The position numbers were made by a program, and so were the translations under genes. Below the pieces are notes generated by a model. The model was not told where the DNA came from. It saw nothing but the letters and a program-made list of their open reading frames with translations, and ran no database searches. A stretch of 62,536 nucleotides of DNA, the filler included, from Stramenopiles sp. TOSAG23-6 (lineage: Eukaryota), in NCBI GenBank assembly GCA_900128565.1. It is 11 parts of 11 records of this genome, joined end to end, with 100 filler letters (N's around TTAATTAATTAA, not from the genome) between each part and the next. Parts side by side here need not be neighbours in the genome. Positions count along the whole stretch, not along the records: positions 22,846 to 28,452 come from LT636872.1; 10 more parts are not named here. The stretch is one strand, 5' to 3'. Below are positions 9,783 to 62,536 of this stretch, one piece after another (within the stretch, counting starts at the first letter, position 1; each line of letters starts with the position of its first letter).

Positions 9783-11326
9783 TTAAGCAACTTCATCTTT
9801 TGTGACCCATTTGTGGTCATCTTTTTCACCAATGTAATGCTCCTCCAAATTATTTGGGTCAATACCATGCATGTATCATGGAAAAATATTTTTTTTTAAT
9901 AAAAAAATTGTTAGGTACAAATTTTTCTATGAAAACAAATGTAGATAAAAAAAATACATGATGAAAACGTACATTGGGTTTTCAGCATGGTACTCCAGTG
10001 CTTTCACAAACAACTTTGTGGTTACAGGATTATTCAGAAGAGGGACATCAAAATCCACTGCTGCGCGACGAATAGTGTAATTATCAGCAAGACTCACTGA
10101 ATTTTCATTTGGAAGATTTATAGCCAAATCAATCTTCCCTTCTTTAATGAGCTCCACAGCGTCATCTTCACCTTTTCCGGGCCATGGCGCAAGAGTACTT
10201 TCAACATTATTTGCCTGAAAAAAAGCATGCGTACGTTCTGTAGCAAATAGATTGTAACCAAGTTGAGTTAAGTTGTATGCGGAGTGAATAAAATCTTGTT
10301 TGTACTCATCTTGAATCGATACAAGAATATTTCGTGTATCAACAGGAAGATTAAACCTTGCCGCAAGTAAACCTTTCATAAAAGCCTCTTCTTTATTTGC
10401 TCCAAAACACGCAACTTCACCTGTAGATGCCATTTCCACGCCCAGTGTCGGGTCTGCACCTCGAAGACGAGTGAATGAAAACATTGGGACTTTCACACCT
10501 ACATATGAGCTAGGTCGTGGTGCTTTGTCCAAAGTGGGTAAATCGTCATCTTCTTGTGGCTCGTCGAGCATTGCGCGAGTTGCAACATTGATGAAATCAG
10601 TACCGACAGTCTTCGAGACAAAAGGTACAGAACGTGATGCTCGAAGATTACATTCGATACATTTTATATCAGCATCTTTAGCCAGAAACTGAACGTTGAA
10701 CGGACCAGTAATGTTCAAAGCATCTGCTATCTTTGCAGCATCCTCCCGAACACGCGAAATTTGAAATTTAGATAACTCTTGTGGTGGTAATACATGCGTA
10801 GCATCACCAGAATGTACTCCTGCATTCTCCACATGTTCAGCAACGGCATGACAGATAATCTTGCCATCCTTTGCAACAGCATCAACTTCAACTTCATAAC
10901 AACCATCAATGAATTCAGTAATCACAACAGGTTTGTCTTGGGATACTTCAGCAGCATTAGCAAGAAAAGCTTCAAGCTGTGAAGGATCTCGGGCGACCTT
11001 CATAGCTGCTCCAGAAAGAACATGTAACGTAGGCAAATATTGTTTTTTGTAAACATTCTTTAGTTACAAAATTTTCATAGTAAAAATAAATCAAATTGAA
11101 ATTGATTATGAAAACGTACATATGATGGGCGAATCAGAACCGGGTAACGTTGCTCACACCATGTACGTGCATCATCCAATGTGGAGAGGGCTGACCATGC
11201 TGGTTGGTCAACTCCAATCGTATGTATTTTGGAAAAATATTTCAAAAAAAATTTTAAAAAATTGTTAGGTACAAAATTTACTATAAAACAAAAATTCGTA
11301 TTTGAAAAAAAATAAAACAAACATCC
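9783..11326 (-). CDS. Carbamoyl-phosphate synthetase large chain, C-terminal part (ATP-grasp + MGS domain); 5' truncated by contig end
   Basis: RPSYVLSGAAM after splicing, EHVENAGVHSGDA, IECNLRASRS.PFVSK, EMASTGEV. Confidence 0.95.
9871..9972 (-). other. GT-AT intron (CPS)
   Basis: CCA AT|GTACGTTTT...CATGATACAT|G CAT. Confidence 0.85.
11022..11119 (-). other. GT-AT intron (CPS)
   Basis: TCA TAT|GTACGTTTT...CGTTACAT|GTT CTT restores RPSY-VLSG. Confidence 0.93.
11222..11322 (-). other. GT-AT intron (CPS)
   Basis: GAT|GTTTGTTTT...CAAAATACAT|ACG ATT GGA gives D-TIGVDQP. Confidence 0.8.
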
Positions 11327-17137: not shown

Positions 17138-20100
17138 TCGGGCGGATAATCGCGGAAATACCCCATTGTTTGTTGCTTTACAGAAAGATCATGTTGGAGT
17201 AGTTCAACTACTTCTTGGTGTAGAGGGAATTGATGTCAATCAGGCTCCTACAAGTGGATTATCGAGTGGAGAAACCCCATTGTGGATTGCTTCAGAGAAA
17301 GGTCATGATAAAGTAGTTGAAAAACTTATCACGTTAAAAGCAGATGTCAATCAGGCTAAAAAAGACGGATCTACTCCATTGTATATCGCTTCGCAGAATG
17401 GTAATGTTGGAGTAGTTGAACTACTTCTTCTTCGTGGTGCAAATATCAATCAGTCTGATAAAGACGGATATACCCCATTGTATATTGCTTCACATCAAGG
17501 TCACGAAGAAGTAGTTCAAAGACTTCTTGAAGCAAAGGGAATTGATGTCAATCAGGCTGATATACTCGGATGTACCCCATTGTNNNNNNNNNNNNNNNNN
17601 NNNNNNNNNNNNNNNNNNNNNNNNNNNNNNNNNNNNNNNNNNNNNNNNNNNNNNNNNNNNNNNNNNNNNNNNNNNNNNNNNTTATTGCTTCAATGAATGG
17701 TCATGAAGGAGTAGTTCGACTACTTCTTGATAAGGGTGCTGAGGTCGATCAGGCTGATAACAACGGATTTACCCCATTGTTTACTGCTTCAGAGAAAGGT
17801 CATGATAAAGTAGTTGAATTACTTGTCGGTGCTAAAGCAAAAGTCAATGAGGCTAGTAAAGACAGATTTACCCCATTGTTTATTGCTTCAAGGGAAGGTC
17901 ATGTCGGAGTAGTTCAAATACTTCTTGATAATGATGCTGAAGTCAACCTGGCAGATAAAAACAACTAACCTGGCAGATAAAAACAACTTTACCCCACTGT
18001 ATATTGCTTCATATAAAGGTCATCAAGGAATAGTTAAACGACTGATTGCCAAGGGTGCTACCATTGACTTGGCAACTGATTCGCTGGGAGAACGTCATAC
18101 TCTTTCTGGTCAAACTCCTTTACTTGCAGCAATCAGTTTAGTTCATGGTGCAGAGGATTTGGTAAAAATTTTACTTGATGCTGGTGCGAATCCTTCATAT
18201 CCGGTCCCTGGTCAAACTTTATCCGATGTTTTTCGTGTAAAAGGGAGGTCTGAAGTGGAAGTGACAAGATTATTCAAACTTTTAATCGATAGAGGGGCTG
18301 TCACAAAAGATGGTGTACCATCCATTTCGAATTTGCTAAAAGGTTTAGTACTCAGATGGCAATTACAACCAGTTAGATTGTTACTCAATGCAGGGGTGCC
18401 GCCGTACACAACCGGGGGAAAACAAAGTGGTGAAGCACTTTTATCTTTAGTGCATAGTTTTAATTCTAAGAACCCATTTAAAGTTGATGGTGATGAAGAT
18501 TTTAAGACATATAACACAATCCCGCTATATATGATGCATTTACTTGCTCAGTATACTGATCCTAATGATATCAGGGAGACAATCACGAGAAAGATAAAAT
18601 CAAAACAAAAAGATTGGCTAGAAAAAAATAAAGCGATTTTGTGCTTTCTTCTTGAACAACGAGAACAACCACTATTACAAATGCCTCCAAATCGGAAAAC
18701 GAAAACGAAAATGAAGCGGTCATCTATATGTGCAAAATACAAGTCTTTAATGGAGAACATTTCGAAAAAAATTGAATTCGTACACTCCCATAATACAATG
18801 TTTGATCTTTTGTATCTTAATCTTGACAGCGCCGTGGATTACAGCAAACAAAAGAAGTATTTTTTTGACGGCTCTAATAATGCCGCAATCGGTGACAATA
18901 TTGGGGAAGATATACCATTTACCCCACATAACTCATTATTTTCTCAGTTTGAGGAAGAAGAACACGAAAAGAGTCTAAATGATTTAGAGACTTTTCTGGT
19001 ACCCCTTGATCAAGCTATACAAATCTACGGCTCGGAGAGGCACTTGGAAGCTATATATACAATGCAACACTTACTGGGGATATCAAAAGGAGACATTACA
19101 ATGGAGCAGCCAGACTTGGAGATGGAATGCGAGGTTATCGATAGAATACTGATTCGATTGCTTAGTTTAGATGCAAGGGTTAAAAGAATAAGAAAACTTT
19201 ATGAGCATGAGAATGGTCGAAATGACTTACTAGAAAACCCAAGACTTTTAAGAAAGTATCAAGAGATTCGTGAGTTGATTTTAAAGTCAGCGAAGTCAAC
19301 GAAGGTGATGAAAACTTTAAACACGCGCGTAAATAAAAAACTGGAAGCAACACAGAGTGTAATTAAAAGAAAACAACATGAAGCGACATTTGAGGCTACT
19401 TCATATAAAGGTATTGAAATGGTGCAAGAAAGGAAGGCATCAACCATGTGGAATAAAATTGGTGAGATATTATCTATTCCCATGAAAGATAAATTCAATT
19501 GGGAACACGAAGCTAAGAAACTTGCTCAAGCCGATGCTGACGTAGTAGAAATAGAGAAACAATCAGCGATGTCAGCTAGACAATTACAAGATCGTACATT
19601 GCAACAGAGTTCAATAGCTGGATCAGCACAACCAGAACCAGATATGAGTCATATGGCAGTCGAAGATTTGAGCAATGATTCAGGTGATAGCGATATTACA
19701 TCTAGTTCCGATTCTAGTGATGATGGTGATAGCGATAGTACATTTAGTTCCGATTATTCAGTAATGCTTCACGATGATGTGCGAAAATGGGTAGCCACGG
19801 CACCTGATACAGATCGTAAACATTTCATAGCGTTCCTAAGCGGTCTAAAAAATGAAGGTATTGCTAAAAGGCGCAACACGAAGATTTTAAAAAGTTGCAG
19901 AGGTCTTTTCGGTCCAATATACCAATCAAGACTTGATAAGAAGCAAAGAATACTCTGGGAAGTGGATATAACAGGGGAAAACACTGTAATGTATGTAGCA
20001 AGAGTATTAGAAAAGCACCATGCCATAGATTTACGCAGAGCATGTGCATCGATGGGTATGGAGACCAAAGATGAATACGCTCAACTTCAATCCGATCAGA

Positions 20101-22319
20101 CAGTTGCCGCTGCTCAAGCATCAAGAGAAAGTGTCACAGCAATGCAAATGTCATCAAACTATGGGTCTGGGTCTAGTAAATGGTTTAATTTTCTTGTGAC
20201 GTCAACAACAGGTTTAGATTGGAATACTACGTTGATGAAGAAAAATTGGCGACATAATTTTTATTTGACACCTCGACAAACTGAACTTGTAAATATTCGT
20301 GGATTTCTGATGATACAAGCGCGTAGTGGTACGGGAAAGACAGAAGTCATTGTGTCACGAATGATTGCTAGGTCAGCAGAAGATACAGGACAAAAACAAT
20401 TATTTGTTGCACACTCGAAGAGTTTATGCGAAGCAACGAAAAAAGAGATAACTACAGAGTTATCAGTAGAAATGGATTTTAAATCAATTGGTGAATTAGT
20501 AACAGAAATATTCGAAAGTACTCCAATACATAAATATGATGGATTGAGAAAATTTACAAAATCGATGTTTCTCCGTGGATATTCAAACATACTGGAAGGT
20601 GTACGCCGACTTAGTACAAAAAACATTCTCCGTGATATTCCAAAAGACATTATTTGGGCTCATATTCAGACATTGATAAAAGGATCTTTGGATGCTGTGA
20701 AGAATAAAAAGGCATTAACCGAGGAGGAATACATAAAGGTTGCTTCAACAAGGACTAATTTGAATGAGACTGATTTACGTGCAATATATGAATTATTCCT
20801 TTCTTATGACTCCTGTAAATATAGTGAAGAGTTCACACCCATGGGGCATGTCGAAGGTAAGACGCCCAAGCAATTATGGTATGATGAAGCTGAGCTTATT
20901 TTGGATTTGACTGAGACATTAGAAAAACAAAAGAGAACCAGGTATAAATATGTATATCTTGATGAAGTGCAAGATGTTACACCTGCTGAATTGAAATTTC
21001 TTCTACTCTTGGCCGGTAATAATCCAAATGCATTAACAGTAGCAGGTGATATTGCACAGCAAGTCATACCTGGTGTGATATTTAAATATGCAGATGTAAA
21101 TGGCATAATGCATTCATCAGGCGTTGATAGTAAAATAATGACGAAACCAGAAAAGTTATATGTAAATTATCGTACACATTCTGGTGTTTTGAATCTTGCT
21201 AAGTTTTTCATAGACACATTGGTAAAACACTTTGGTTTGCCACCAGGAGAGAGTGATCGTGCAATCAATGAAGGTCCTCTACCTCAAATTTGGATTCCAC
21301 CCAGTGATGAACATACCACAGCATTACGTACTTTTCGTAGAGAGATTGGTGACAGTTGCGACGCAACATTATTATTTAGAACACAAGCTGATCTGGATAT
21401 GTTCATGGCATCCCCAGAATTTAGCGATTATAAAGGAGAAAAAATGACAATACTGCAAGCAAAGGGACTTGAATTTGATAATGTAATACTTGTTGATTAT
21501 TTTTCATCATCATCTAAAATTGTAGGAACAAAAGCATGGAGGCATTTACTTGATGATAGTGTTGGAAAGAGAGATATTCATAATACTATGGAGCTCGAAT
21601 TACGGTTACTGTATACTGCAGTGACAAGATGCAAAGGCCGATTATTTTTTGTAGAATTGCAATGGCCCCAGGACTTAGATTCAAGACTCACAACAAAGCG
21701 TTCGAAGAAGGCGTTTCGAGGTTCACCTGAGAATGCTGAAATCGCAATTTCTATTAGCAATTGGCTTCTAGGAAATGGATCTCATGTATTTGCATCGTCT
21801 ACATCAACAGATGGTGTTATTCACATGGGTGGCTCAAGAATGTCTTCAGCAGATGGACATACACATGCATTGGCCACATTAATTCCTGAAGTAAGCGGAA
21901 ATGCTGAACCAGGAAAGATTCTTCATCTAAATCAAATGACAACATCAAAGAAAAGAGACGCGGCATTTACTTATGTCCAAAGAGCGTTACAATGTGATGA
22001 TGGTGACGATAGAGCTCGACTGCTTGGTGAAGCAAAGATCTTCTTTAATTCTGCTAAATTATATACATACACTTCTAAAGTAGAGCAACTAGAGAAGTGT
22101 CTCTCAATATCAATAGACCCAAGACAAGTATCTTCTCAATTTAAAAATATTGATGGATTCATTACTTCTGTTATAGATTGCATTACTATTGGCGAATTTA
22201 GAAGGGCTTCTATTATCTTGCAGCTACAGCTTGAGCACCCCGAGAATTGGGAAATGGAAAAAGTCGAAATGCAGAAATATATCAAAATGATGGAAGATTT
22301 AATTTCTGTCCACTCCTGA
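17138..22319 (+). CDS. Ankyrin-repeat + putative RelE-like domain + UvrD/SF1 helicase (TRANK1-like); 5' truncated
   Basis: About ten G.TPL.IAS..GH ankyrin units; ARSGTGKT, LDEVQD, AGDIAQ, NYRTH, AKGLEFD, LYTAVTR. A 22-bp duplication at 17945 shifts the frame. Confidence 0.85.
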
Positions 22320-23476: not shown

Positions 23477-26028
23477 TCATTTCATACCTCTCATTTTTTC
23501 TTTTTCATCTTCTTGTTCTTCTTTTATTTTAATTGATTCCCAATCGACCGAGACTTTCTTATTATATTTTTGAAAATTCGAATCTGTTTCTTTCTTTTGC
23601 CGTGTATTGTAAAAAAATATTGTAGAAAAAAAATTGTTAGATACGAAATTTCGTACGAAAAAAAAACAATTTAAAATTCATCATGAAATACGTACGTTGT
23701 TCCAAGTAATTTTGTCGGTATCCTACAACTGTATCTACATGTGTTTGATTCTTAGTAGCTAATTTTAGTGCTCTTTTCCATCGAAACAATCGAATATTTA
23801 ATTTAATTGCTCTATATATCATGGGTGGGGATGCTTGCAGCAAAATATTTTCGGCTTCATCAATGGCACCCCGATACACAGCTAATTCGGCATTTCTTCT
23901 TTCTTCAACTGGTATACCTTTCATATACAAAACAAATTGTAGTTTTGCCATTTCGGAAACTTTTGCAAGAGCTATTTCAGCAGTGCTAAGATGTCTACCC
24001 CACAATGCCATTGAAGCTAGTGCAGCCCAAAGTTCCTTCCTTTTCACAAATCTACACAATGTATTGTGAAAATATTTTTTTTGTAACAAAATTTGTTAGG
24101 TACAAATTTTCGTACGAAAACAAAATTTAATTTGAAATTTAATTTTGAAAACGTACATCGAACAGCTTCATTCCACTGCTGCTTTACAATAAATGCATAT
24201 AATAATGGTGGATACGGTGATACTGAAGCAGTAACAATGGATCCATCAGATTTTCTTACTGTAACCCGGGAACCAAAGTTTGAAACAATAAAAGGATGTT
24301 TACCAAAGCTTGCCGCATCACTGACAATTTTTGTTTGTTCAAGTAAGTCTTTATCCACATAAACGCTATGTGGATAAACCCATGTAACAAGTTTACCATC
24401 TGTACAAGCAGAGAGCATGAATTGTAAAAAAATATTTATTTTTTGTAAAATTTGTTAGGTACAAAATTTTCATAGTAAAAAAAACAAATTTTGAAAAAAA
24501 AAACATACATGTCAGAAGAATCATTCCATTCTGATGTATCGCACATGGTGACAAGCTTTACTGGTTTTTGTCCCAGTTTTACGACATAAAGATCACGATT
24601 TGAATCTACAAAAGAGATCATTGGATCTCTAGACTTTGTAAATTGACTCAAATCTAATTCTTGGATATCACGTGAATGCACTATAGGTTTACCTCTAGGT
24701 TGTCCTGTGTGTACATCAAACACTATGAAACTTTTACGCATCGACGAATTGAGAATTGCTATTTTGTCTGCACTGAGGGATATAGCACGCTCATTCAGCA
24801 TTTCTGCGCGCAATCCTTTAAATCTAGGATTAGACAAAACACGACCTTCATAATTATATACTTGAATGCCAGCAATAGCATTCACCATTACGAACAAACA
24901 ATCACTTTGAATAATCATTGTTGGAGGATGTCTTAAATCAAATATATGCGGCGTGTTATAGTTATCCACAGAGTAAATATGACATTGAGAAGATGTAGTC
25001 ACAATTAAATGACCAAATGCAATAGACATGTCAATCACACGGCTACGGAAATCAATTTTTTCACTGTTTTCAGTCATGCAATTCATTACTTCTATTCGAT
25101 TTGCATCGGTTAGAGTCACTTCAATGTTTTTCCATTCCAAACGTCGATTGACCAAAGTACTAATAATAACACTCCCAACGCCACCGGCACCAGCACAGCT
25201 TGTACCATCATCAGTCCACGCCAAGCGTAAAAGTGAACCACTCTGAAGTCGAGATCTTGAATAAGACCAACCTGTTTGATCACAGAGCCGAAGTAAGTTA
25301 TATGATCCAACAGAAAAACATTCACCAGTTGGAGACCAGGCGATAGAAGTAATGACATAGTCAAATGGGGCACTCGAGTACAAAAGACGCCCATATGAAT
25401 CCCACACTTTATATTTACAGTCTTCACCACATGAAATAATCTTACCATTCACTGGATTCCAGTCTGCTTCAGTGACAATACCATCGTGCGCTTTCCATTG
25501 AAGATGTTTCCGATCAATCTTTGTTGTTTTTATTAACAAATCCCGACCCTGGGTAAATAAAAGTTGATCATCATTAGGTGCCCATCGTACACTATATATT
25601 GGATGTTTTGATTTCATGATTGTGGCTCTTAACTGTCCCGTGCGGGAAAAAGTTTTCACTGCTCCATCCTCACCACCAGTTACAATTACATTTCCTTGAA
25701 AACTCCAACGAACGCAAATGACAGCACCACGATGAGCTTCAATTTTTTTTTCTATACGACCAGATTTATGTATCAGACAAAACGAACCATCTGTACACCC
25801 GGAAACGAACATATCTGCTACCATATTATGTGTTGTAGGCTGCCAATGAAGACTTGTTACATAAGTGTTAAATGTAACTAAAGTTGGTTTGAGGAGTTCT
25901 CCACTGGTTGACCACAGGCTGATTGTTTTATCATCTGATGCTGCAATTACTTCATTATTTGGAGTAAATTCAACTGCTGATACAACTTCGTCGTGATGCC
26001 GCTGTACTTTTGCAATATCAAGTCGCAT
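23477..26028 (-). CDS. IFT80: Intraflagellar transport protein 80; 4 exons
   Basis: WD40 repeats, GEDCKYKVWDSYGR, AVRLCRFVK after splicing, THVDTV; exons 26028-24509, 24416-24157, 24058-23696, 23601-23477. Confidence 0.95.
23602..23695 (-). other. GT-AC intron (IFT80)
   Basis: CAA C|GTACGTA...CAATACAC|GG CAA; the frame requires this length. Confidence 0.8.
24059..24156 (-). other. GT-AT intron (IFT80)
   Basis: CGA T|GTACGTTTT...CACAATACAT|TG TGT restores VRLCRFVK. Confidence 0.93.
24417..24508 (-). other. GT-AT intron (IFT80)
   Basis: GAC AT|GTATGTTTT...CAATTCAT|G CTC. Confidence 0.9.
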
Positions 26029-26331: not shown

Positions 26332-27513
26332 ATGTCACATGCTGTTCGTACAGCAAAACCAAAGTTAAGAAATAGAAAAAAGAATATAGGCATTCCTGGA
26401 AGCCCTATCGGCCCAGGTCTAATTGACGACAATGGGATATATTCAAGTATGCGTAGCTTACTCTCTCAAGCTTTCGATGATTTTGACACAGACAAAAATG
26501 GATATATAGATGCCGAAGAACTCGAAAACCTCTGTAAAATGTTAGGCTCTAGACTATCAAAACAGCAAGTAGAAGAATTACTTCAGGAATTAGATACTAA
26601 TAGAAGTGGTTCCGTCGATAAAACCGAGTTTATTGCGTGGTGGTTGAATAAAAAAAACGAAGCTAGAAGGAAGTTACGAGCAGAAAAACTTGGTACAAAG
26701 CCAGGCAAAAATAGATCTCAAATGTACAGTACACATCTACTACCGCAACTCCCCGGAGCAGCCCCGGTACGATTATTGGATGCGAGACGCAATCGAAAGT
26801 TGACAGACCGAGATACTGAAATGTTAAGAAATCGTGTAAAACTTTTAAAAGTAGAAGAACTCAAAACATTAAAGCGTATATCAGATGCAAACTACCAAGC
26901 TGCTAAAATATTTAAGAGGAAACAAACACAGACAAATAAAATGATGCGGCGAGTGGAAAACGCGAGAACAGAACTAAAGAGAAATAGGACAGCACAGGAG
27001 CAAAACTATGTATGTTTTATTTTTTTCAATTTTTTATCTAATTTTGTTTTCGTACTAAATTTTGTACCTAACGATTTTTTTTTGAAATATTTTTTCACAA
27101 TATATGTCAAAAAAGAACTTGCCAGAATTTCTAAATTGAAAGCAGCTCGAGCAGTGGTAGCACGAAAGAATGCAGCTGCTCAACATATAAAAAATGAAAG
27201 AAAAAGATTGAACAACATTAAAAAACAAGAAAATGATCAATTGAGATCAAAGAGATCTAAAAGAAAAAAACAAATTTTGTCGATCCGTCAAAAAGTCTTT
27301 GAAGAAAAGTTGAAACGAGAAGACGAAAGAGCCGAACAAGCTGAACTTGTCTATTTATCGAGAGTAATGCACGAACAACAATTACAGAGGGAAAAGGAAC
27401 AGACTCTTCGTGAATTAGAAAAAAGAGAAGCTGAATTAATTGGTAGATTACAAAATGCACACTTAATGCAAGAAGAAGCTTTACATAGTCTAGGTCGTGT
27501 CTTGACACAATAA
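26332..27513 (+). CDS. EF-hand + coiled-coil protein; 2 exons
   Basis: EF-hands DTDKNGYIDAEE and DTNRSGSVDKTE; coiled-coil C-terminus. Confidence 0.85.
   Translation: MSHAVRTAKPKLRNRKKNIGIPGSPIGPGLIDDNGIYSSMRSLLSQAFDDFDTDKNGYIDAEELENLCKMLGSRLSKQQVEELLQELDTNRSGSVDKTEFIAWWLNKKNEARRKLRAEKLGTKPGKNRSQMYSTHLLPQLPGAAPVRLLDARRNRKLTDRDTEMLRNRVKLLKVEELKTLKRISDANYQAAKIFKRKQTQTNKMMRRVENARTELKRNRTAQEQNYVCFIFFNFLSNFVFVLNFVPNDFFLKYFFTIYVKKELARISKLKAARAVVARKNAAAQHIKNERKRLNNIKKQENDQLRSKRSKRKKQILSIRQKVFEEKLKREDERAEQAELVYLSRVMHEQQLQREKEQTLRELEKREAELIGRLQNAHLMQEEALHSLGRVLTQ
27010..27105 (+). other. GT-AT intron (96 nt, in frame, read through by the ORF track)
   Basis: TAT|GTATGTTTT...CACAATATAT|GTC; an F-rich insert interrupts the coiled coil. 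Confidence 0.88.
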
Positions 27514-28552: not shown

Positions 28553-29270
28553 TTTTCAACCATTTCTTTGTATGTATTTATATCTGTATTATTTTGATTA
28601 TTTTGATTATTTTGATTATTTTGATTCGTCTTAAAAACTAAATCCAAATTGTTAGGGTTAGGGTTGTTAGGGGTATCATCTAGTATAGCCCAACGATGAT
28701 CTCTACTATCACAAACAGCCCCATAACGCACTAAAAGACAACCCAATTCTTCATTTGCTGAGTTAATAGCAATGGTAAGCGGATGTATATTATGTCTACA
28801 ATATTTCATTTTTTTTTTAAATTATTTTAGTTTTTCATTTTTTTTTTTTCAATTTTTTTTTAATATTTCGTGTATTTCGTTGGAAAAAAAAAAAAGCTAA
28901 TAATCCTAAGTAAATAAATATTGAAAACATGAATATAACATGAATATATGTATGAATAATGAAAACATATATACCATTTAATGCGGTACAATTAGGATCT
29001 GCACCTAAATTTAGACATATTTCACATAAATTTAAATCATTGTGAAGAGCTGCCCATAATAGAGGAGTATATCCTGAAGCATCACAAATATACATTGTCA
29101 ACAATATTTCATTTTTTTTTTTTTAGTATTAGTACATTTGACTTTGGTACAACATTTAATTTAAAAAAAAAAAAAAAAATTTTGTTTAAAAAATTTTGGT
29201 TAAAAAATGTGTTACAAAAACCAAAAACCTTTTTTTTTTTTTTTTTTTTGATTAGGGTTAGGGTTATTTA

Positions 29271-29303
<33 letters not shown>

Positions 29304-30221
29304 AGTAAGACAAGAGTAATGAAAACATACATGCATTGATTCGAAATCTTCTTTACCAACCACAAGAGGTGTAAATGGTGTTCCATCTAAGGCAAGTGCA
29401 GATGTAATCTCTTGGTCAGTTGTGAATGTAACAAACGCAAAACCGCCTGTTGCTTTTTCCATATCTGATGATTTTGTTGTTTTTAATGATTTTAATGATT
29501 TTAATGATTTTAATGATTGTAATGATTGTTTAGTTTCTTTTTTTTTTGATCCGTGTTTTGTTCGACAACCAAGTTTTACTTGGTATCCATCTTGTAGTTG
29601 CACACCGCCATCAGAAAGCCATTGGATCACTTGTTCGGTTGTAGCAGTATATGGTAATTGTTGAATATAAACTTGTTTTCGATTTCGCCATCTCATTTTC
29701 TTTTTTTTTTTCGTTTTTGTGTTTTTTGTGTTTTTTGTGTTTTTTGTGTTTTGTTTTTGTATCAGATTATTTCCATTAAAGTTTTTTTGATGTCCAGACA
29801 TTGCATGGCTTGATACAGTACATTTTGAAGCAGAGTCATTCATGATAGTTTGTATTGTGTTGTTGTTGACCGGTGGGGAAATAATGTCATTTGAAAATGG
29901 AGAAACGTTGTTATCTCTGTTTGGGTGATTAGGGTTAGGGTTTTTCGTCTCTACTTTAGATTTCTTTGTCACTGGTTCTTGTTGAGTTCCTTCCATTATA
30001 GATTGTTTTAATGTATTGATAACACTTTCTTTATCGTTTCCAATTGGTAGTAACAACATTGCTTTTCGTTTACGCTTCGCTTTATCCTTATTTTTTCGAT
30101 TGCGTCTCTTTTTTTTTTCATCTTTTGCTTCTTTCAGTGAACGCTTTTTAAGCTTTCCATTACCACGACGAGTCTTTTTCTTGTGAATATCGTGGATGAT
30201 ACTTGTTTGTTCTTTAGTCAT
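28553..30221 (-). CDS. RRM + ankyrin-repeat protein (mirror copy of 32487-34155)
   Basis: Identical to the + strand copy. Confidence 0.65.
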
Positions 30222-30586
30222 TGGATATACAATTTGAAAAGTTTGATGATGATGAAAATGAAAATCAATATTTGTTTCTTTGTATGTCCTGTCTGGTAGA
30301 ATGAAATCTCGAAAACAAATCAGTACTCATCTCGGTAATTTTGACTGACTTGTTCTTGTTGCTGTTCTAGAGGTTAAAAAACAGGAATGTTCCAACTTGT
30401 CAAACAAAAGATACTGCATATTTTATATACGGATTTTCGTACCTAAACACAAAGTTCGGAGTTGTCAAAAATGGCCATCAACGGTGAATTAAATTTAAAA
30501 AAAAAAAAAAAAAAAAAAGATATTTTTTCAGTACAAAACAAATCCCAAAATATATTCTACTGTATACACACTGAAATCACACGACA

Positions 30587-31236
30587 ATGATCAAAGGACG
30601 TCGAAGGCATTCTTCATTTGGAGAACACGGTCATCCAGGAGGTATGGCTGAGATCCAACGCGAAGAGCGTTTCATGGTAGGTCCAGCGAAAAAGAAATAT
30701 ATTGTGTTGGGTGGACGAAAGCGAAAAGGATTGACTGGTGACACTGCAGAGAAGTTGACGAACTGGGTCTTTACTCAATTCTTACCCTGTGGAAGGGCAA
30801 TCGATGAATATCATTTGCGTCGTCTGTGTACGCAAATCAGACACCTCGCAAATAAACATGAATCTGGATTGAAGTTTGATCAATATCACATTTGGTTTCA
30901 ACGAGTTTGTCAAGACATTTCAATTCACCGAGAAAAAAATAAAGGAAATGTCAACTCAACAAAACAAAACCTAAATGGATACAATTCAAAATACGATCCA
31001 GGACATTCTGGTAGACCTAGTCACAGGACCCTTCCTGGTTATTCGAATGGTTTATCTACTGGGTTTGAATCAGGTTGTGTTGTCATTGATCATCCTAATA
31101 AGCCTAAAAAAACTAAAAAAACTAAAACAACTAAAAAAGGAAAACATCAACATCAACAAAAAAGGAAAAAACAAAATGGTACATCTAAACCCAAAATAAG
31201 AAAATTCAACAAAATTGAAACAACAATGAGACGTAT
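30587..31236 (+). CDS. Hypothetical protein, first exon; runs into a consensus intron donor at ~31237
   Basis: ORF ending in GTATGTTTT plus the core motif. Confidence 0.6.
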
Positions 31237-31471
31237 GTATGTTTTATTTTTTTTCAAATTCAAATTTTTTTTTCGTACGAAATTTTGTACCTAACAAATT
31301 TTAGGTTTTTTTTTTTTCAAATTCCAATTTTTTTTTCGTACGAAATTTTGTACCTAACAAATTTTTTTTGAAATATTTTTCTGGAATTTGAAAAAAAAAA
31401 AACCTAAAATTTGTTAGGTACAAAATTTCGTACGAAAAAAAAATTTGAATTTGAAAAAAAATAAAACATAC

Positions 31472-32121
31472 ATACGTCTCATTGTTGTTTCAATTTTGTT
31501 GAATTTTCTTATTTTGGGTTTAGATGTACCATTTTGTTTTTTCCTTTTTTGTTGATGTTGATGTTTTCCTTTTTTAGTTGTTTTAGTTTTTTTAGTTTTT
31601 TTAGGCTTATTAGGATGATCAATGACAACACAACCTGATTCAAACCCAGTAGATAAACCATTCGAATAACCAGGAAGGGTCCTGTGACTAGGTCTACCAG
31701 AATGTCCTGGATCGTATTTTGAATTGTATCCATTTAGGTTTTGTTTTGTTGAGTTGACATTTCCTTTATTTTTTTCTCGGTGAATTGAAATGTCTTGACA
31801 AACTCGTTGAAACCAAATGTGATATTGATCAAACTTCAATCCAGATTCATGTTTATTTGCGAGGTGTCTGATTTGCGTACACAGACGACGCAAATGATAT
31901 TCATCGATTGCCCTTCCACAGGGTAAGAATTGAGTAAAGACCCAGTTCGTCAACTTCTCTGCAGTGTCACCAGTCAATCCTTTTCGCTTTCGTCCACCCA
32001 ACACAATATATTTCTTTTTCGCTGGACCTACCATGAAACGCTCTTCGCGTTGGATCTCAGCCATACCTCCTGGATGACCGTGTTCTCCAAATGAAGAATG
32101 CCTTCGACGTCCTTTGATCAT
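31472..32121 (-). CDS. Mirror copy of the 30587 hypothetical protein
   Basis: Identical translation. Confidence 0.55.
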
Positions 32122-32486
32122 TGTCGTGTGATTTCAGTGTGTATACAGTAGAATATATTTTGGGATTTGTTTTGTACTGAAAAAATATCTTTTTTTTTTT
32201 TTTTTTTTTTTAAATTTAATTCACCGTTGATGGCCATTTTTGACAACTCCGAACTTTGTGTTTAGGTACGAAAATCCGTATATAAAATATGCAGTATCTT
32301 TTGTTTGACAAGTTGGAACATTCCTGTTTTTTAACCTCTAGAACAGCAACAAGAACAAGTCAGTCAAAATTACCGAGATGAGTACTGATTTGTTTTCGAG
32401 ATTTCATTCTACCAGACAGGACATACAAAGAAACAAATATTGATTTTCATTTTCATCATCATCAAACTTTTCAAATTGTATATCCA

Positions 32487-33404
32487 ATGACTAAAGAACA
32501 AACAAGTATCATCCACGATATTCACAAGAAAAAGACTCGTCGTGGTAATGGAAAGCTTAAAAAGCGTTCACTGAAAGAAGCAAAAGATGAAAAAAAAAAG
32601 AGACGCAATCGAAAAAATAAGGATAAAGCGAAGCGTAAACGAAAAGCAATGTTGTTACTACCAATTGGAAACGATAAAGAAAGTGTTATCAATACATTAA
32701 AACAATCTATAATGGAAGGAACTCAACAAGAACCAGTGACAAAGAAATCTAAAGTAGAGACGAAAAACCCTAACCCTAATCACCCAAACAGAGATAACAA
32801 CGTTTCTCCATTTTCAAATGACATTATTTCCCCACCGGTCAACAACAACACAATACAAACTATCATGAATGACTCTGCTTCAAAATGTACTGTATCAAGC
32901 CATGCAATGTCTGGACATCAAAAAAACTTTAATGGAAATAATCTGATACAAAAACAAAACACAAAAAACACAAAAAACACAAAAAACACAAAAACGAAAA
33001 AAAAAAAGAAAATGAGATGGCGAAATCGAAAACAAGTTTATATTCAACAATTACCATATACTGCTACAACCGAACAAGTGATCCAATGGCTTTCTGATGG
33101 CGGTGTGCAACTACAAGATGGATACCAAGTAAAACTTGGTTGTCGAACAAAACACGGATCAAAAAAAAAAGAAACTAAACAATCATTACAATCATTAAAA
33201 TCATTAAAATCATTAAAATCATTAAAAACAACAAAATCATCAGATATGGAAAAAGCAACAGGCGGTTTTGCGTTTGTTACATTCACAACTGACCAAGAGA
33301 TTACATCTGCACTTGCCTTAGATGGAACACCATTTACACCTCTTGTGGTTGGTAAAGAAGATTTCGAATCAATGCATGTATGTTTTCATTACTCTTGTCT
33401 TACT

Positions 33405-33437
<33 letters not shown>

Positions 33438-34155
33438 TAAATAACCCTAACCCTAATCAAAAAAAAAAAAAAAAAAAAGGTTTTTGGTTTTTGTAACACA
33501 TTTTTTAACCAAAATTTTTTAAACAAAATTTTTTTTTTTTTTTTTAAATTAAATGTTGTACCAAAGTCAAATGTACTAATACTAAAAAAAAAAAAATGAA
33601 ATATTGTTGACAATGTATATTTGTGATGCTTCAGGATATACTCCTCTATTATGGGCAGCTCTTCACAATGATTTAAATTTATGTGAAATATGTCTAAATT
33701 TAGGTGCAGATCCTAATTGTACCGCATTAAATGGTATATATGTTTTCATTATTCATACATATATTCATGTTATATTCATGTTTTCAATATTTATTTACTT
33801 AGGATTATTAGCTTTTTTTTTTTTCCAACGAAATACACGAAATATTAAAAAAAAATTGAAAAAAAAAAAATGAAAAACTAAAATAATTTAAAAAAAAAAT
33901 GAAATATTGTAGACATAATATACATCCGCTTACCATTGCTATTAACTCAGCAAATGAAGAATTGGGTTGTCTTTTAGTGCGTTATGGGGCTGTTTGTGAT
34001 AGTAGAGATCATCGTTGGGCTATACTAGATGATACCCCTAACAACCCTAACCCTAACAATTTGGATTTAGTTTTTAAGACGAATCAAAATAATCAAAATA
34101 ATCAAAATAATCAAAATAATACAGATATAAATACATACAAAGAAATGGTTGAAAA
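32487..34155 (+). CDS. RRM + ankyrin-repeat protein; introns ~33378-33618 (GT-AT) and ~33738-33921 (AT-AT); 3' truncated
   Basis: RNP2 VYIQQLPY, RNP1 GFAFVTF; GYTPLLWAA and GIHPLTIA ankyrin units after splicing. Confidence 0.7.
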
Positions 34156-34331: not shown

Positions 34332-35210
34332 CATTTTAACGTGCAGAAGCAAAAAACATTTCAAGCCCCTCTGAAATCAAAATCACCAATGACATTTCAA
34401 TGTGGTTTTCGCCGTTTCAAAGTTAGACCAATTTTTTCCGAACAATCGCGTAATTGTGATAAGCATAAGTTCCAGCGGTTTATCAAGAATGGATGGTCTA
34501 TTGCATGTATGTTTTATTTCTTTTTTTTTTACGGTAAAAAAAAAATCGAATTTTTTTTTTCGTACGAAATTTTGTACCTAACATTTTTTTTGTTTTTTTG
34601 AAATATTTTTCCAAAATACATCAGTGTATGGACCAGTAACCTACGCCCCTGCATCTCTTCTCGCATTCACTGAAAATGATGAACTTGCTGTAGTTGGATC
34701 ACTACAGTCTGTGAATCCTGATAGAATTATTTTGAAAAGAATTATTTTGACAGGAATTCCAGTTAAAATTCATAAAAAAGTTGCTGTGATTACTCAAATG
34801 TTTTACCGCCCTGAAGACATCAAATGTACGTTTTCAGTAACAACATCCTTGGACAGGTTTGTTCAAAATTTCAATTTTTTACTTTTTTTTTACTATGAAA
34901 GTTCCGTATCTAACAAATTGTTTTTTCAAGATGATTATTTTTTCACAATACATGGTTTAAACCAATTGAGTTGCGCACAAAATATGGAATGGTGGGAAAT
35001 ATTAAAGACTCTGTAGGTACACATGTACGTTTTCAATTTCGAATTTCAATTTTTTTTTCATACGAAATTTTGTACCTAACAAATTTTTTTGTGATTTTTT
35101 TTTTCACAATACATGGTGCTATGAAGTGTACGTTTAATAAACCAATTAAGAATCACGACACAGTTTGTATGCATTTATATAAAAGATCATATCCAAAGTG
35201 GTGTCAATAG
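34332..35210 (+). CDS. TSR1: Pre-rRNA processing protein TSR1, C-terminal exons
   Basis: CGFRRF..RPIFS, DKHKFQRF, RIILKRIILTG, WFKPIELRTKYG, GTHGAMKC.F, LYKRSYPKW; exons 34332-34506, 34622-34825, 34954-35024, 35115-35210. Confidence 0.95.
34507..34621 (+). other. GT-AT intron (TSR1)
   Basis: GCA T|GTATGTTTT...CAAAATACAT|CA GTG. Confidence 0.92.
34826..34953 (+). other. GT-AT intron (TSR1)
   Basis: AAA T|GTACGTTTT...CACAATACAT|GG TTT restores WFKP. Confidence 0.93.
35025..35114 (+). other. GT-AT intron (TSR1)
   Basis: CAT|GTACGTTTT...CACAATACAT|GGT restores GTHG. Confidence 0.93.
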
Positions 35211-35479: not shown

Positions 35480-37658
35480 TTAGCCAAATGCACGAACGAA
35501 ACTTCTCTTTATTGCATTATTCATCTCACGTCTTGAAGATGTCAGACAACTTGTTGCACTAGGTTTACTAAAATAGTACGATGATAAAAGAGCTTGGGTT
35601 CTAGGCAATAATGATTGAATTAACATATCTGCGAAATCATCATCCCATAAATTTGTAACCGCGCATAATAACACCCACAGACGCCATGCACTGGCTTTTT
35701 TATCTCGAGAATGCCATTTTTTTATTGAATTAGAAAAATACTTTTTAGAACGTTCAAGTTTCTTTTTTTTTTCCTTTTGGATTTCATTTTTTTGTGTTGT
35801 ACTAAATTCTGTACCTAAAGAATGTTCAAGTTTCTTGGAGACATTGCTCTGTCTATTATTTTCAGTATCAACATTTTTCTCTTTTGTAAGAACATCAGTT
35901 TTTGTTTTTTTCTCTATTTTTTTCTTTTTCTTGTTTTTCTTCTTTTTATTTTTGACATTACTCATTTTACCAAAGGTATCACAAACAATTTCATGCTCAA
36001 TATCACTCCAAAATAAAGGTCCAAGAGCCCAACCTTCGAGGACGGAAGCTAAAGGACGAAGTAACTTTTGAATTTCAAAAATAGTTTTTAACTTTTTTGA
36101 TACAATGGGTGAAATATCATAGCAAATGTTTTCACGTGAGAGAATCCAATTAGGACAGTTTAGATGATAATTTTCCATTTCGACAAAACTGGCACAAGAT
36201 TTTGTTTTTCCTGGTAAAAGTCCTTTTATATTACAACGCCACTCATTTTCACTACTTTCATCATCACTTTGAAAATTCGAAACTGAATCTCTATCAAATT
36301 TTGTACTTTTCTTTGTAATTAATCTTTTACGTTTTGTAGTGGATTTTGTAGATTTTGTAGATTTGCCTCGACAATGTTTTTTAGTGTTGTGAGAGTATTT
36401 CGTGTTTTCATCAATTGTATTGTTTTTTGTATTTCCACTTTTATCACTTTTTTTTGATATTTCGTTTGACAATTTTGAAAGTCGTTTCGTTGTTTCTTTA
36501 GACGCTGATTTACGAGCCTCGGCAACTAATTGAGATATACGACCAATAGAAGGACCACTATAGGCATACAATGCAGCAAGAGCAAAGTCTGGGCCATTTG
36601 ACAAATGATTTGTGTTTTTTATAAATTTAGGTTTTAAGTGAATATCTTCTTTTAACAGATTATTATTATTCTGTTTTTTTGATGACGTCAACAAAAAGCC
36701 TTCATTGTGCTTTCCCATGTCATGTATTTTGGAAAAATATATCAAAAAAAATCTAAAAAAAATGTTAGGTACAAAATGTCGTACGAAAAACAAATTCGAT
36801 TTTTTTGTAAAAAAAAAAAATAAAACATACATGTATAGCAATCCATCCAAACAATTGGCCAATATCCATACTATCCTCTTCTATTTCCTTCCCAACTAGA
36901 ATGGCACAAACACGACCATTCAAAGCAAAACCTTCTTCCTCAATGTTAGACAGAAGAAAATTACTATACAACGATTTAACCTCTTTTTGAGGTTTCTTTA
37001 AAATACTGAGTGTTTTACTTCCAATAAAATGTGAAGCTATTAGAGAACGATCTCTCATACTACGATTTTTGCAGCACACGCGTAGTAAAGTACATACTTG
37101 GGATTCAACCATTGGCAAATCTGTCAAAGGCAATTTCCCCAAGACACAAACGTCAGTACGCCACTCTTGCGGTAAAACAAAATGGCGTTGCCAATATTGT
37201 GAACATGCACATACTATTGCTTGTGCGACAACGGAAGGGATGTCCAGTGAAAACACACACGATATAAGTCGACCTACTAATATAGCCCAGTCTGTAGAGG
37301 AATGACTAGCGCATTCAAAAAACTCGTTGAAAATTTTATCAGCATAAGACCAAGCTCCATCATGTGTACTTGAACTAATATGGCACCGATTGCAAATGGA
37401 TTCGAATAAGTTGCGAATATCACTATGTATATCGCGAGAAACAGCAATAATCGAAAATCTTTCATTCAATCGTAAATATGTGACAACACGTGGTAAAACT
37501 GATTTAAATTTCAATGATATATCGTTTTGACTCGACGTTGAAGCTCTATCATTCCGGCTGCGCTTAGATGTTGGTTCCAGCTTTCTGCATTCACCAGAGC
37601 GCTTCAGACGTTTCCATGTACTCTGCCTTTTCATCGGAGATGGATTATGATCAGGCAT
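35480..37658 (-). CDS. Hypothetical protein, possible F-box-like N-terminus; 2 exons
   Basis: Two long ORFs joined by intron 36722-36830; LP.V..YL.L.ER.....VSR pattern. Confidence 0.7.
36722..36830 (-). other. GT-AT intron
   Basis: CAT|GTATGTTTT...CAAAATACAT|GAC. Confidence 0.9.
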
Positions 37659-38018: not shown

Positions 38019-39769
38019 ATGTTGATTAACCCTAATGAATATCGGAGATATGATTCCTTTGATGACCACAACAACAATAATTGTAGCATCGTGGAGGATA
38101 CTGTGACATCCTTGTCACCAAATTCCTTTGATGAAGACCACAACAACAATAATTGTAGCATTGTGGAGGATACTGTGACATCTTTGTCACCAAATCCTGT
38201 TGATCCTGGGAGGGGTTCTTCTGTTGAACTATATTTAGATGAAGTTGCTGAATTTCTACAAGCTTATTATGGAGGTAAATATGCTAATACTACGTATATC
38301 ACCGATGACGTTTTAGTGAAACCCGATGGTCCTTCTCTCGAAGCTATGTTAGTAAATGATAAAGCGAAACGCTTTCAGTTTTTGTGGGCAGGTGATTTAC
38401 AGTTTGTGAAGTTACGAGGAGTCAAATTTCCTGAGTATTCCCAAGAAGTGGAGTCATATTTGTTTAAAATTGAAAAGGCATTTCGTCAAAATGGAAATGC
38501 TTCCATCAATTCTTCTCAACTTAATGGTGGTCCGCTTGGCATACACAAACCACAAGACTGTGATATTCCACTTCAAGAAATGTTGGTGAATGATCCTCAA
38601 CAACGTTTTAAGATTACAAGAAAGGGAGTCAAGGGTCTCTTTGTGCGTTTAGTATCTAGAAATAATAGTCCAAATGAAAAGAAAACCTCTACCACGAAAA
38701 GGGCCACATTATCCCCCAAAGAAGCTAATTCACCCATAGTAAAGGAATATTTGATAAAAATTGTAAAATTCATAAAGCTAAGAACGAGTCAGGGGAAGGA
38801 TAAGGCTGGATTTATCAACACATCAACATTTAATGATCCCAATGCATGTTTTATTTTTTTTTGAATTTCGAATTTATTTTTCATACGAAATTTTTGTACC
38901 TAACGAATTTTTTTTTGAAATATTTTTTCAAAATACATTTTAACCTGAGTAAACCCAATTTAAATCCCCATGTGTCAGTAAGAGCTCTGCTTCTTTCTGA
39001 CAAATATCAGCGATTTGAAGTTCAAAGATTTGGTTCTGTGGATTTCGCACGATTAGTTAATAGACCGTGTACGTTTTCATCATGAATTTAAAATTGTTTT
39101 CATACGAAATTTTGTACCTAAGCAAAAAATATTTTTTTTTGAGTTTTTTATTTGATACGTTTACCTAATTGTTTTTTATCCTTATGCTATGATTTTCGTG
39201 CCTAACAAATTTCAAATTTGACATATATTTTCGCGCACATTTTATCCAAAATCTTCCCCGCTACATTCTTCAGGTGGGGACCCAAGGGAGAAGTCTTTAG
39301 ATGATGATGAAATTCATGTACGTTTTATTTTTTTTTTTCAAAAAAATCGAATTATTTTTCGTACGAAATTTTGTACCTAACAAATTTTTTAAGATTTTTT
39401 TTGAAATATTTTTCCAAATTTCATACTAGACCTGAAATAAAACAATATCTAGCCAAAGTTGAAAAATTCATCGAGGAAGCTCCCAAAAGATATGGAGGCT
39501 ACGTTGATACATCTAAATTTAATATGCCCCTTCACGGGCTTATTAAACCTAGATTTTGTAAACAAAATGTCAAAACTCTTTTATTGTCAGATCCTCAAAA
39601 TAGATTTGTGATGAAAAAAATAGGCTCTGTTAATTTTGCAAAATTATCTGGACATTTGAAAATACAAAAAACAGAGAATTTCGTCCAAGATTCAAATTCT
39701 CTACAACCGTGCCCCGAAGAAATATCAAAATATTTGTTAAAGGTTACAAATATTTTGTCTACAGAATAT
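38019..39769 (+). CDS. Hypothetical protein with ~5 repeats of a ~70-aa domain; at least 4 exons, 3' truncated
   Basis: Repeat YL.K...F....G....S....P...L.KP......LL..D...RF.....G...F..L. Confidence 0.75.
38844..38938 (+). other. GC-AT intron
   Basis: AAT|GCATGTTTT...CAAAATACAT|TTT AAC. Confidence 0.85.
39069..39240 (+). other. GT-AT intron with several branch-motif copies
   Basis: CCG T|GTACGTTTT...GCGCACAT|TT TAT; frame-consistent with the next 77-nt exon. Confidence 0.75.
39318..39424 (+). other. GT-AT intron
   Basis: CAT|GTACGTTTT...CAAATTTCAT|ACT. Confidence 0.85.
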
Positions 39770-40035: not shown

Positions 40036-40729
40036 GGTAAATTTTCATGCTGGTAAAAAGTTTCTCCTAATAATATAGAGCAATTATCACATCGAAAGCA
40101 TTGCTTATGCCACTTTTTATTTAATGCAGTTATTATTGTACAAGTAATTGGTAATTGACAACTACAACAAGTAGAGGTACGAAGATTCACTATAGAGTTA
40201 CTATTACATGTATTGGAAAAAATATTTTTTTTTTTTTGGTGTAAAAAAAATCGTTAGGTACGAAATTTCGTATAAAAAATATTTTTTGCGAAATTAATAA
40301 TACAAACGTACTTGGATGATATATTTTCGAGTATGGTTCTGGTCTCCTTGCAAATGGCTTTTGTGTGTTTTTGTATTGTTTTGGAATAATTGAATATGGT
40401 TCTGGAGTCCTTGGAGTATTTTCATATCGTCTACTTGCATTCTGTAGAGCAATATTGATGGGTGTTTCTAAAGTGTTTTTTGTGTTTTTTTTATATTTTT
40501 GTAATTCTTCAAGTCTACATAAAAGCTGTAATTGTATTTCTGTATTTAGCAGAAGAGCAACAAGATCTTTTTTTTCAATACAATTGCTAGTATTAGCTGA
40601 TGCTACATGTAAAAGAGTTTTTAATGTCTTGACGGGTAAATTTGATACACGTTGCTTCGAACGAAGTATTTCAGGTAATTCTAGAAGTGTTTCTTTTTCA
40701 AAATGGCTAATTGACGCAGCGGCCCCCAT
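40036..40729 (-). CDS. LIM-domain protein with possible N-myristoylation start (MGAAAS); 3' truncated
   Basis: Exon 2 (40207-40036) encodes CCSC...ALNKKWHKQCFRCDNC. Confidence 0.8.
40208..40311 (-). other. GT-AT intron (LIM gene)
   Basis: CCA A|GTACGTTT...CCAATACAT|GT AAT. Confidence 0.85.
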
Positions 40730-55372: not shown

Positions 55373-55505
55373 TTTATAACTTTGTTTTTCTTTTTGAAAG
55401 CAAAGGAAACAGAATTCTACATTCATTAACGAGAAACGACTTTGTACAATAAAAGTAGATAATATCCGAAATTATTGTAATATTTTATCATACTCAAATC
55501 TTAAA

Positions 55506-62445: not shown

Positions 62446-62536
62446 ATGTATTTTGAAACAATATTTCAAAAAAAAAACNTNAANTTGNTANGTANCAAAA
62501 TTTCGTATGAAAAATAAATTCGATTTTTTTGTTAAA

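Follow-up and report, generated by a model that had tools for sequence, protein, structure and literature searches.

Introduction

Introners of Micromonas, Aureococcus, Chrysochromulina and Polarella are short, high-copy elements that insert with a target-site duplication, carry one splice site, take the other from the duplication and leave the length of the mRNA unchanged; in the accessible text of the papers cited here and below, their co-opted acceptors are AG and their duplications measure 3-8 nucleotides (nt) (PMC11282704; bioRxiv 2022.06.06.494994, 2020.10.14.339549). Here we analyse a stretch of 62,536 nt, filler included (the window), from the assembly GCA_900128565.1 of the uncultured marine protist Stramenopiles sp. 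TOSAG23-6, focusing on intron 2 of its IFT80 gene, a copy of an element family that shares these Introner properties and resembles in particular the Chrysochromulina elements, in which a duplication without terminal inverted repeats (TIRs) provides the 3' splice site. Unlike those Introners, the family has a duplication of 2 nt and an acceptor that is mostly AT. The parallel with AG|GT..AG Introners drawn in the original prediction for this locus thus holds for the layout and fails for the acceptor: like an Introner, the family brings its own donor and obtains its acceptor from the duplication, but this acceptor is usually not AG.

AT acceptors on a large scale are known from the tunicates Fritillaria borealis and F. 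pellucida, in which 34% and 44% of introns, respectively, end in AT (PMC13326754). These introns are also transposon-derived and removed by a U2-type spliceosome, and the repeat found before their donor recurs as their 3' end (PMC13326754; PMC11282704). However, Fritillaria has a YAY triplet repeat, AG/AC and AG/AT as main classes and diverse ends (PMC13326754), whereas the introns described here belong to a single family with a canonical GT donor, a strong branch box and a 2-nt repeat; neither a YAY repeat (position -3 does not covary) nor AG donors (donors are GT) characterize them. Duplicated, divergent U2AF subunits are a further property of the Fritillaria system. Since the host is a stramenopile and the layout is different, an independent origin is indicated.

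Two further systems show partial likeness. Amoebophrya, another marine protist, has a majority of non-GT-AG introns with direct repeats at the junctions, but its inverted repeats of 8-20 nt, direct repeats of 3-5 nt, lack of a clear end signature and U1 that was not found (PMC7789003) differ from the fixed ends, the inverted repeat of 3-4 nt and the U1 match seen here. ISL2EU elements (PHIS superfamily) produce a target duplication of 2 base pairs (bp), AT (PMC4482050), and the DDE_Tnp_4 domain occurs in the present assembly; yet they target A|AT|T, have TIRs of 6-259 bp starting with GG and are known only in animals (PMC4482050), whereas our family has a C-AT-G context, a GTA start and a 3-4-nt repeat and tolerates non-AT targets, so that neither the A|AT|T context nor a TIR starting with GG is present.

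Results

Exon and intron ends covary at a two-base repeat

The window joins 11 contigs of about 5.6 kb each by spacers, and was analysed with 40 further stretches of the assembly (G000, 21,121,382 bases in 6,236 contigs), 20 of them picked for matches to the conserved core of the family and 20 being consecutive pieces of large contigs. Profiles omitting the flanking dinucleotides gave 243 unique candidates; 129 scored at both ends, 122 had flank enough to be tested, and the 95 whose excision produced the best of the three frames and no stop constitute the validated set, on which the counts below are based unless stated otherwise. Several of the 34 copies outside this set failed through an adjacent uncalled intron or a miscalled end.

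The focal intron (24059-24156, minus strand; 98 nt, GT..AT, phase 1) reads exon..CGAT | GTACGT..CAATACAT | TGTG, which confirms the AT|GT..AT junction repeat predicted for it. Its sequence and the end profiles over the 95 copies delimit the element proper as GTA...TAC, 96 nt long (24061-24156, minus strand). The upstream AT (24157-24158, minus strand) is the exon end, exonic by the synonymy test described below, and the downstream AT (24059-24060, minus strand) acts as 3' splice site, as supported by covariation, synonymy and homologs.

Across the validated set, exons ended in AT in 61 of 95 copies and introns in 74 of 95, AT accounting for 9.7% of exon dinucleotides. The proportion of AT exon ends agrees with that originally reported for the window (19 of 31 introns), although the total of 31 was not reproduced: counting one row per donor and excluding 2 palindrome-centre rows, 1 miscalled end and 8 low-scoring donors, we counted 21 complete introns, of which 15 follow an exon ending in AT. 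Three of the 21 have a non-AT acceptor, and the earlier observation that two of these copy the exon end was borne out (TT at 2416-2558, AC at 23602-23695).

Exon and intron dinucleotides were identical in 70 of 95 copies, 57 of these pairs being AT. The covariation that had been predicted between the two ends persisted with AT excluded, as 13 of the 17 pairs in which neither member is AT matched (shuffled mean 3.4, maximum 10 in 50,000 shuffles), namely GT/GT (5), TT/TT (4), AG/AG (2), AA/AA (1) and AC/AC (1). Counted from the intron side, 13 of 21 non-AT intron ends equalled their own exon end (3.1 expected), and in a set of 90 copies defined by profiles only, 11 of 13 matched, with a mutual information reached by 1 of 20,000 shuffles. 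This agreement where neither end is AT identifies the dinucleotide pair as a target-site duplication, specific to each locus as in Introners, and, because position -3 did not covary (p=0.16), the duplication comprises two bases. Kinship between elements does not determine these terminal bases, since the nearest relative of a copy shared its non-AT end in only 2 of 21 cases.

The repeat also decays with apparent age, being intact in 27 of the 31 copies with the closest relatives (youngest-looking) and in 19 of the 31 most distant ones (oldest-looking; rank test p=0.017). The differences are not random with respect to the reading frame: single-base mismatches were synonymous in 11 of 19 cases against 21% expected (p=5e-4), and mismatches were enriched at phase 1, which puts the first base of the repeat in a third codon position (15/25 vs 19/70, p=0.007). 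In mismatched pairs with one AT (n=21), it was the intron (downstream) copy that was AT in 17, and retaining the downstream copy creates a stop in one gene. As mismatches are mostly synonymous and commoner in older copies, the upstream copy is exonic and the introns are GT..AT rather than AT..AC; coding constraint limits the drift of the upstream copy, and the downstream one is preserved by its role as splice site.

Sequence preference extends symmetrically to both sides of the duplication, C preceding it in 28 and G following it in 31 of the 70 matched copies. At AT sites, C preceded 24 of 57 (background 62/358, p=7e-5) and G followed 25 of 57 (background 82/358, p=0.002). Such symmetric C-AT-G flanks are as expected of a cutting enzyme with two-fold symmetry.

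Excision of the element plus two bases restores the coding sequence

Excising GTA..TAC plus two bases gave the best of the three frames in 108 of 122 copies and was free of stops in 96, compared with 20 and 15 for one-base shifts. We followed the consequence at the protein level in the IFT80 gene, which lies on the minus strand. Exon 1 (24509-26028) contains the Pfam domain Beta-prop_IFT80_2nd (E=3e-75) and aligns with homologs; it is followed by intron 1 (24417-24508, 92 nt, AT|GT..TTCAT), placed by an RNA contig and homologs, and by exon 2 (24157-24416), defined by translation and homolog alignment and covered without differences by an RNA contig over 24240-24415. Exon 3 (23696-24058), beyond the focal intron, carries TPR_IFT80_172 (E=2e-43) and is covered by RNA contigs over 23714-24027 and 23695-23919. 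Intron 3 (23602-23695, 94 nt, AC|GT..TACAC), positioned by homologs, has a non-AT duplication, and the coding part of exon 4 (23477-23601), found by six-frame translation, matches the C-termini of database proteins P0001-P0003.

The focal GT..AT join was gap-free in 100 of 100 IFT80 homologs. Every AG within 45 nt was considered as an alternative: those at +7, +19 and +23 lead to stops, and that at +42 to a gap in all 100 homologs. The joins at introns 1 and 3 were gap-free in 100/100 and 98/100 homologs, and the in-frame AG options of intron 3 (+12 and +18) in 0/100 and 3/100. P0002, 79% identical and encoded whole on an 8,485-nt contig, continues through all three intron sites, and among distant IFT80 loci on metagenome contigs (80 kept of 125) the coding sequence was uninterrupted in 64/64, 59/59 and 46/54 of those covering the sites, many of which may be transcripts. 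The closest database protein, P0001, is identical across the common exons, but this public model (23477-26028, minus strand) omits a 19-residue exon stretch, runs into intron 1 and loses residues near introns 2 and 3 and inside exon 3. Its label reads as a MAST-3 annotation, and from that label, rather than from a tree, we take the source to be a MAST-3-like marine stramenopile.

RNA data were contigs assembled from four seawater RNA runs (X1, X2, X4 and X5). At intron 1, one X4 contig (351 nt, depth 9.8, 3 differences) lacks exactly 92 nt and extends for 175 nt on its shorter side; of the five equivalent cuts compatible with this skip, only one starts with GT and none ends with AG. Runs X1, X2 and X5 contained no exon-exon joint and no contig crossed the focal intron; one X5 contig aligns as far as the boundary of intron 3, and its remaining 19 letters are too short a stretch to be counted. 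Frames, homologs and this one RNA contig thus agree on a precise removal that restores the coding sequence, and, with the covariation, the decay with age and the independence from kinship, they bear out the AT-preferring 2-bp duplication and scarless removal proposed in the original prediction. As a separate observation, summed RNA contig depth (X1, X4) over the intron cores at 23602-23695, 24059-24156 and 27010-27105 is in the thousands, compared with less than 10 on the IFT80 exons; summation over thousands of copies, intron retention, DNA carry-over and stable excised introns could each account for it.

AG acceptors, otherwise a property of U2-type introns, occurred in 4 of the 95 copies, and across the assembly one end motif was followed 1,072 times by AT and 58 times by AG. 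Outside the family, a strict GT..AG search found no intron, and a looser one, which recovers 60 of the 95 family introns, returned 22 rows, mostly family copies lengthened to an AG. Two plausible non-family candidates of the ordinary GTAAG..CAG type emerged, in L003 (plus strand, near 8546) and L009 (minus strand), from which AG acceptors are probably still functional in this cell.

A high-copy family with fixed ends and U2-type signals

The family follows the layout NN|GTAYGT...CTAAC...TAC-NN|, with copies of 87-130 nt (median 98, n=95). Its parts are a GTAYGTTTT donor, a conserved core whose last portion is a branch-like CTAAC box, a tract of T and a closing motif of TAC or TAT plus two variable bases. 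The donor is GT in 84 of 95 copies, with G at +5 in 89; T occupies positions -15 to -12 in 92-95 copies and C or T position -3 in 94, and the branch box lies 33-52 nt from the intron end. The extended GT donor consensus, branch box and pyrimidine tract of U2-type introns are therefore all present. The focal copy has the branch-point-like box TACCTAAC at 24095-24102 (minus strand), matching the family profile; its A at 24096, the putative branch point, lies 38 nt before the end of the intron, and the core pattern search places the palindromic portion of the family core at 24107-24120.

Non-GT donors are exemplified by copies in L019 (minus strand) and at L009:5908 (plus strand) and, in the window, by 1301-1411 (minus strand) and 38844-38938 (plus strand). 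Two AT-donor copies end in AC, and the final base is C in 2 of 6 copies with an A-initial donor vs 2 of 89 with a G-initial one (p=0.019), a small hint of an interplay between the first and last intron bases.

A 26-nt core pattern had 6,372 matches in the assembly with at most 1 mismatch, a number inflated by duplicate contigs, and its reversed control had none. Best non-allelic identity had a median of 85%, reached at least 90% in 19 of 129 copies and rose to 94.6% between unrelated loci; many similar introns at unrelated loci are also what defines the Introner class. In addition, variants of the 5' and 3' ends are linked as subfamilies (p=6e-7), and this linkage, with the similarity between unrelated loci, indicates that copies descend from one another and do not merely share common splice signals. 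Elements lie in sense orientation relative to the gene in 123 of 127 cases. The core had no match in the viral contigs searched, and a viral carrier is not indicated.

Other aspects of organization were noted. At L002:7483-7678 (plus strand) two unlike family copies abut, with AT before, between and after them and no exon in between. Copies are strongly clustered (L007, L008, L030-L032), more than 10 occurring in some genes and none in nearby long genes, and the exons between copies (n=62) are seldom shorter than 60 nt, with no clear nucleosome period seen. The focal intron folds better than most shuffled sequences (z=-2.5, 3 of 200 shuffles equally good), and its two ends are unpaired in the predicted structure. 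The assembly contains duplicate and palindromic contigs: that at 28553-34155 of the window is a palindrome centred on a family copy, and those at 51303-56872 and 56973-62536 are near duplicates, both typical of amplification or assembly artefacts. In many contigs, family copies are interrupted by the contig ends.

Insertion mechanism and competing explanations

The original prediction also listed a terminal inverted repeat, ATGTA...TACAT. The letters are there, but their AT is the self-complementary duplication; without it, pairing of the element ends is seen at positions 1-4 (73, 81, 82 and 55 of 95 copies) and almost never at position 5 (2 of 95). An inverted repeat of only 3-4 nt, showing no covariation, lies under the 6 nt applied as TIR threshold in the accessible text of the 2022 Introner survey, so that the term TIR is weakly deserved; the TIR of at least 6 nt typical of TIR transposons and of miniature inverted-repeat transposable elements is lacking.

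With good confidence, though well short of certainty, we interpret the family as a short non-autonomous element with a 2-nt target duplication, whose downstream copy serves as 3' splice site in U2-type splicing with a YAU acceptor. The DNA element (GTA...TAC, about 96 nt) would insert at a 2-nt staggered cut, preferably within C-AT-G, and repair would duplicate the two target bases, the duplication being what the statistics above show. The element would bring the major-spliceosome donor GTAYGT, the branch box CTAAC and a T-rich tract, while the downstream copy of the duplication would become the 3' splice site. Splicing, presumably through the usual lariat chemistry, would then excise the element with one copy and restore the original mRNA, in line with frames, homologs and one RNA contig. 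With the downstream copy in this role, the U2-type spliceosome of the host would have to tolerate YAU as acceptor and, more rarely, GU, UU, AC, AA and AG.

A transposase is the simplest source of fixed ends together with a fixed 2-bp duplication, and a dimeric DDE transposase supplied in trans is the candidate that we regard as more likely than not to be the cutting enzyme. Five DDE_Tnp_4 matches in the assembly correspond to two different open frames, of 420 and 508 amino acids, one of them on four identical-looking contigs; they are candidates for the mobilising enzyme or for domesticated genes.

Several observations weigh against this interpretation. The repeat is mismatched in 25 of 95 copies, with both bases differing in 6, and the donor is not GT in 11 (AT in 6, GA in 2, GC in 2, GG in 1). 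The bias to C before and G after the duplication could partly come from selection for splicing, and an inverted repeat of 3-4 nt is short for a DDE substrate. An autonomous partner was not found in a transposase search limited to DDE_Tnp_4, and the element ends of the matches to that domain were not seen. Neither a close IFT80 relative nor an empty allele was found among the metagenome contigs (best identity 57% in the 80 loci kept of 125). RNA support consists of one contig at intron 1 only, and an intron-less allele would look identical there, although such an allele, if real, would itself confirm the duplication. Finally, the sample covers 458,549 of 21,121,382 bases and half of its added stretches were selected for core matches.

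Among the alternatives, the one that fares best attributes the cut to the host: an enzyme of the Spo11/topoisomerase VI kind would make breaks with a 2-nt stagger at which copies are captured, fill-in of the overhangs would produce the duplication, and splicing would proceed in the same way. SPO11 cuts with a 5' overhang of 2 nt and a base bias that is rotationally symmetric; its mouse sites in vitro match GNATNC and yeast Spo11 favours C at -2 (PMC11922745). The target here is likewise symmetric, C-AT-G, and the element's lack of a real TIR would also suit such an origin. However, the SPO11 signature is described in the accessible text as a composition bias and not a motif (PMC11922745), yet AT makes up 57 of the 70 matched duplications here, and G at -3 is not evident. 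Moreover, the ends of the element are exact to the nucleotide; this calls for a donor cut with precision, and break capture provides none. We therefore consider this origin unlikely, and less likely than a transposase.

It is more improbable still that there is no duplication at all, the terminal AT being borne by the element, or TGTA...TACA inserting between A and T in Helitron fashion, with AT exon ends reflecting target preference. Helitrons do insert between A and T without duplication, AT dominates on both sides of our introns, and an intron AT follows a non-AT exon end in 17 of 95 copies. Against this, the 13 copies matching at non-AT dinucleotides largely refute it and set the family apart from Helitrons, and the mismatches are biased to phase 1, to synonymous change and to older copies, as for drift of a once-identical exon copy.

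Where the repeat is perfect, the GT..AT and AT..AC registers yield identical mRNA, and the introns could in principle be cut two bases earlier, as AT...AC introns of U12-like or U2-type nature. U12-type introns have an RTATCCTT donor and a branch close to the intron end, whereas the family has GTAYGTTTT and the more distant branch box given above. AT..AC termini are a known splicing-compatible pair (PMC13326754), and the RNA joint at intron 1 cannot separate the registers. Nevertheless, only the GT register gives the GTAYGT donor with its G at +5; the upstream copy is the variable, synonymously drifting one; the earlier cut produces the stop mentioned above in one gene, and intron 1 would read AT..TC. 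The assembly has no U6atac match, a weak argument given that the genome is incomplete. We judge this register very unlikely.

We give just as little credence to a Crypton-like insertion by a tyrosine-recombinase-type enzyme, in which crossover takes place at a short core, here of 2 nt, common to element and target. The short direct repeat and the almost absent TIR would suit it, but copies ending in GT, TT, AG and AC do not cluster by sequence (P=0.18, 0.50, 0.13 and 0.59; n=7, 4, 4 and 4, a small sample). The least credible proposal is that the AT is not the cut, either because splicing uses an AG close by or because editing turns the last base into G beforehand. It can draw on the first AG at or after the end being in frame in 38 of 95 copies and on the joins of this kind in P0001. 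However, those 38 include the 4 true AG ends and are near the one-third that chance alone would give; at each of the three IFT80 introns, joining at an AG disrupts the protein or opens a gap; the joint in the RNA contig has no AG available; and nothing supports editing.

Spliceosome components and the proposed tolerance of AT acceptors

The major small nuclear RNA (snRNA) genes of a U2-type spliceosome are represented in the assembly, with U6, U2 and U5 above the cut-off and a U1 match (E=8e-12, 54.1 bits) under the Rfam cut-off of 69.5. The U5, U2 and U1 genes share a strand and follow one another head to tail in a span of about 500 nt, separated by gaps of 2 and 23 nt, an arrangement that is possibly transcribed as one unit.

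Yeast spliceosomes without Prp18 use CAU and UAU more efficiently than any other non-G acceptor, which requires a poly(U) tract, and pairing of U-1 with G+1 has been proposed for HAU acceptors (PMC10711555). The family likewise ends in CAT or TAT after a T tract; unlike in that yeast, where HAU use is an error of the mutant, AT would be the normal site here. A Pfam search of the assembly gave no match to Prp18, in an incomplete genome whose genes are split by introns and with no positive from a control genome, while Slu7 was detected by the same route; loss of Prp18 in this lineage may be taken as a weak lead. It is conceivable, though we hold it only tentatively, that a spliceosome without Prp18-type proofreading is blind to the last two intron bases, the 3' cut being set by the T-tract/CACAATAC signal plus two bases. 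If so, the element would be harmless at any sense-strand site, which would explain how one family supplies most introns, and AT would reflect the target choice of the cutting enzyme and not a new splice rule.

Other family introns in the window

On the plus strand, a 96-nt copy in an EF-hand gene (27010-27105, AT|GT..TATAT) is in frame and stop-free; one gene holds three AT|GT..AT copies (34507-34621, 34826-34953 and 35025-35114), two more with AT on both sides lie at 38844-38938 (GC donor) and 39318-39424, and a further AT|GT..AT copy at 44022-44134. The remaining copies are on the minus strand. Of these, the intron with the TT duplication (2416-2558) reads TT|GT..TACTT, and that at 2051-2145 (GA|GT..TT), its boundary set from profiles only, has a non-AT acceptor unlike its exon end. 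Decayed repeats are found at 2734-2827 (AC|GT..AT, a synonymous difference) and 40208-40311 (AA|GT..AT). AT repeats flank copies at 1032-1139, 1301-1411 (AT donor, low score), 1733-1832 and 2255-2347, and AT|GT..AT copies occupy 9871-9972 and 36722-36830.

Two observations concern other sequences. An intronless frame of 1,468 amino acids (17913-22319, plus strand) shows, by eye, ankyrin-like repeats followed by a helicase-like region, and L023 contains a second, lower-scoring full-length match to small-subunit ribosomal RNA, possibly organellar or bacterial.

Discussion

The evidence for a family of introns that take their 3' splice site from a 2-nt target duplication is strong at the DNA level and thin at the RNA level. 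Large-scale use of AT acceptors has already been published for Fritillaria; what is new, as far as the searchable literature goes, is the lineage, the canonical donor and the 2-bp duplication. No publication on GT-AT introns from MAST or any other stramenopile came up, although subscription papers and supplements outside that literature could hold one. Single-cell genomics papers mentioning MAST-3 contained no passage on splice sites, "stramenopile" and "MAST" are absent from the text and from 12 of the 14 supplements of the 2025 Introner survey, and in the accessible part of the 2022 survey supplement "Stramenopiles" appears solely in a download list.

Two practical consequences follow for genome annotation. 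Gene models of this marine grazer lineage that are forced to GT-AG are wrong, as P0001 illustrates, and Introner surveys built on annotated introns would overlook families of this kind.

Few rules of eukaryotic splicing are as conserved as the AG acceptor, and the machinery of this cell seems to accept an unusual intron end. Next to Fritillaria, the family offers a second, independent case of AT acceptors in the literature covered here, and, since it combines ordinary donors and branch boxes in a single family, it singles out the 3' step, so that one can test which proteins (Prp18, U2AF, Slu7 or Prp8) enforce AG. It is also a direct illustration of how target duplication can create a class of splice site.

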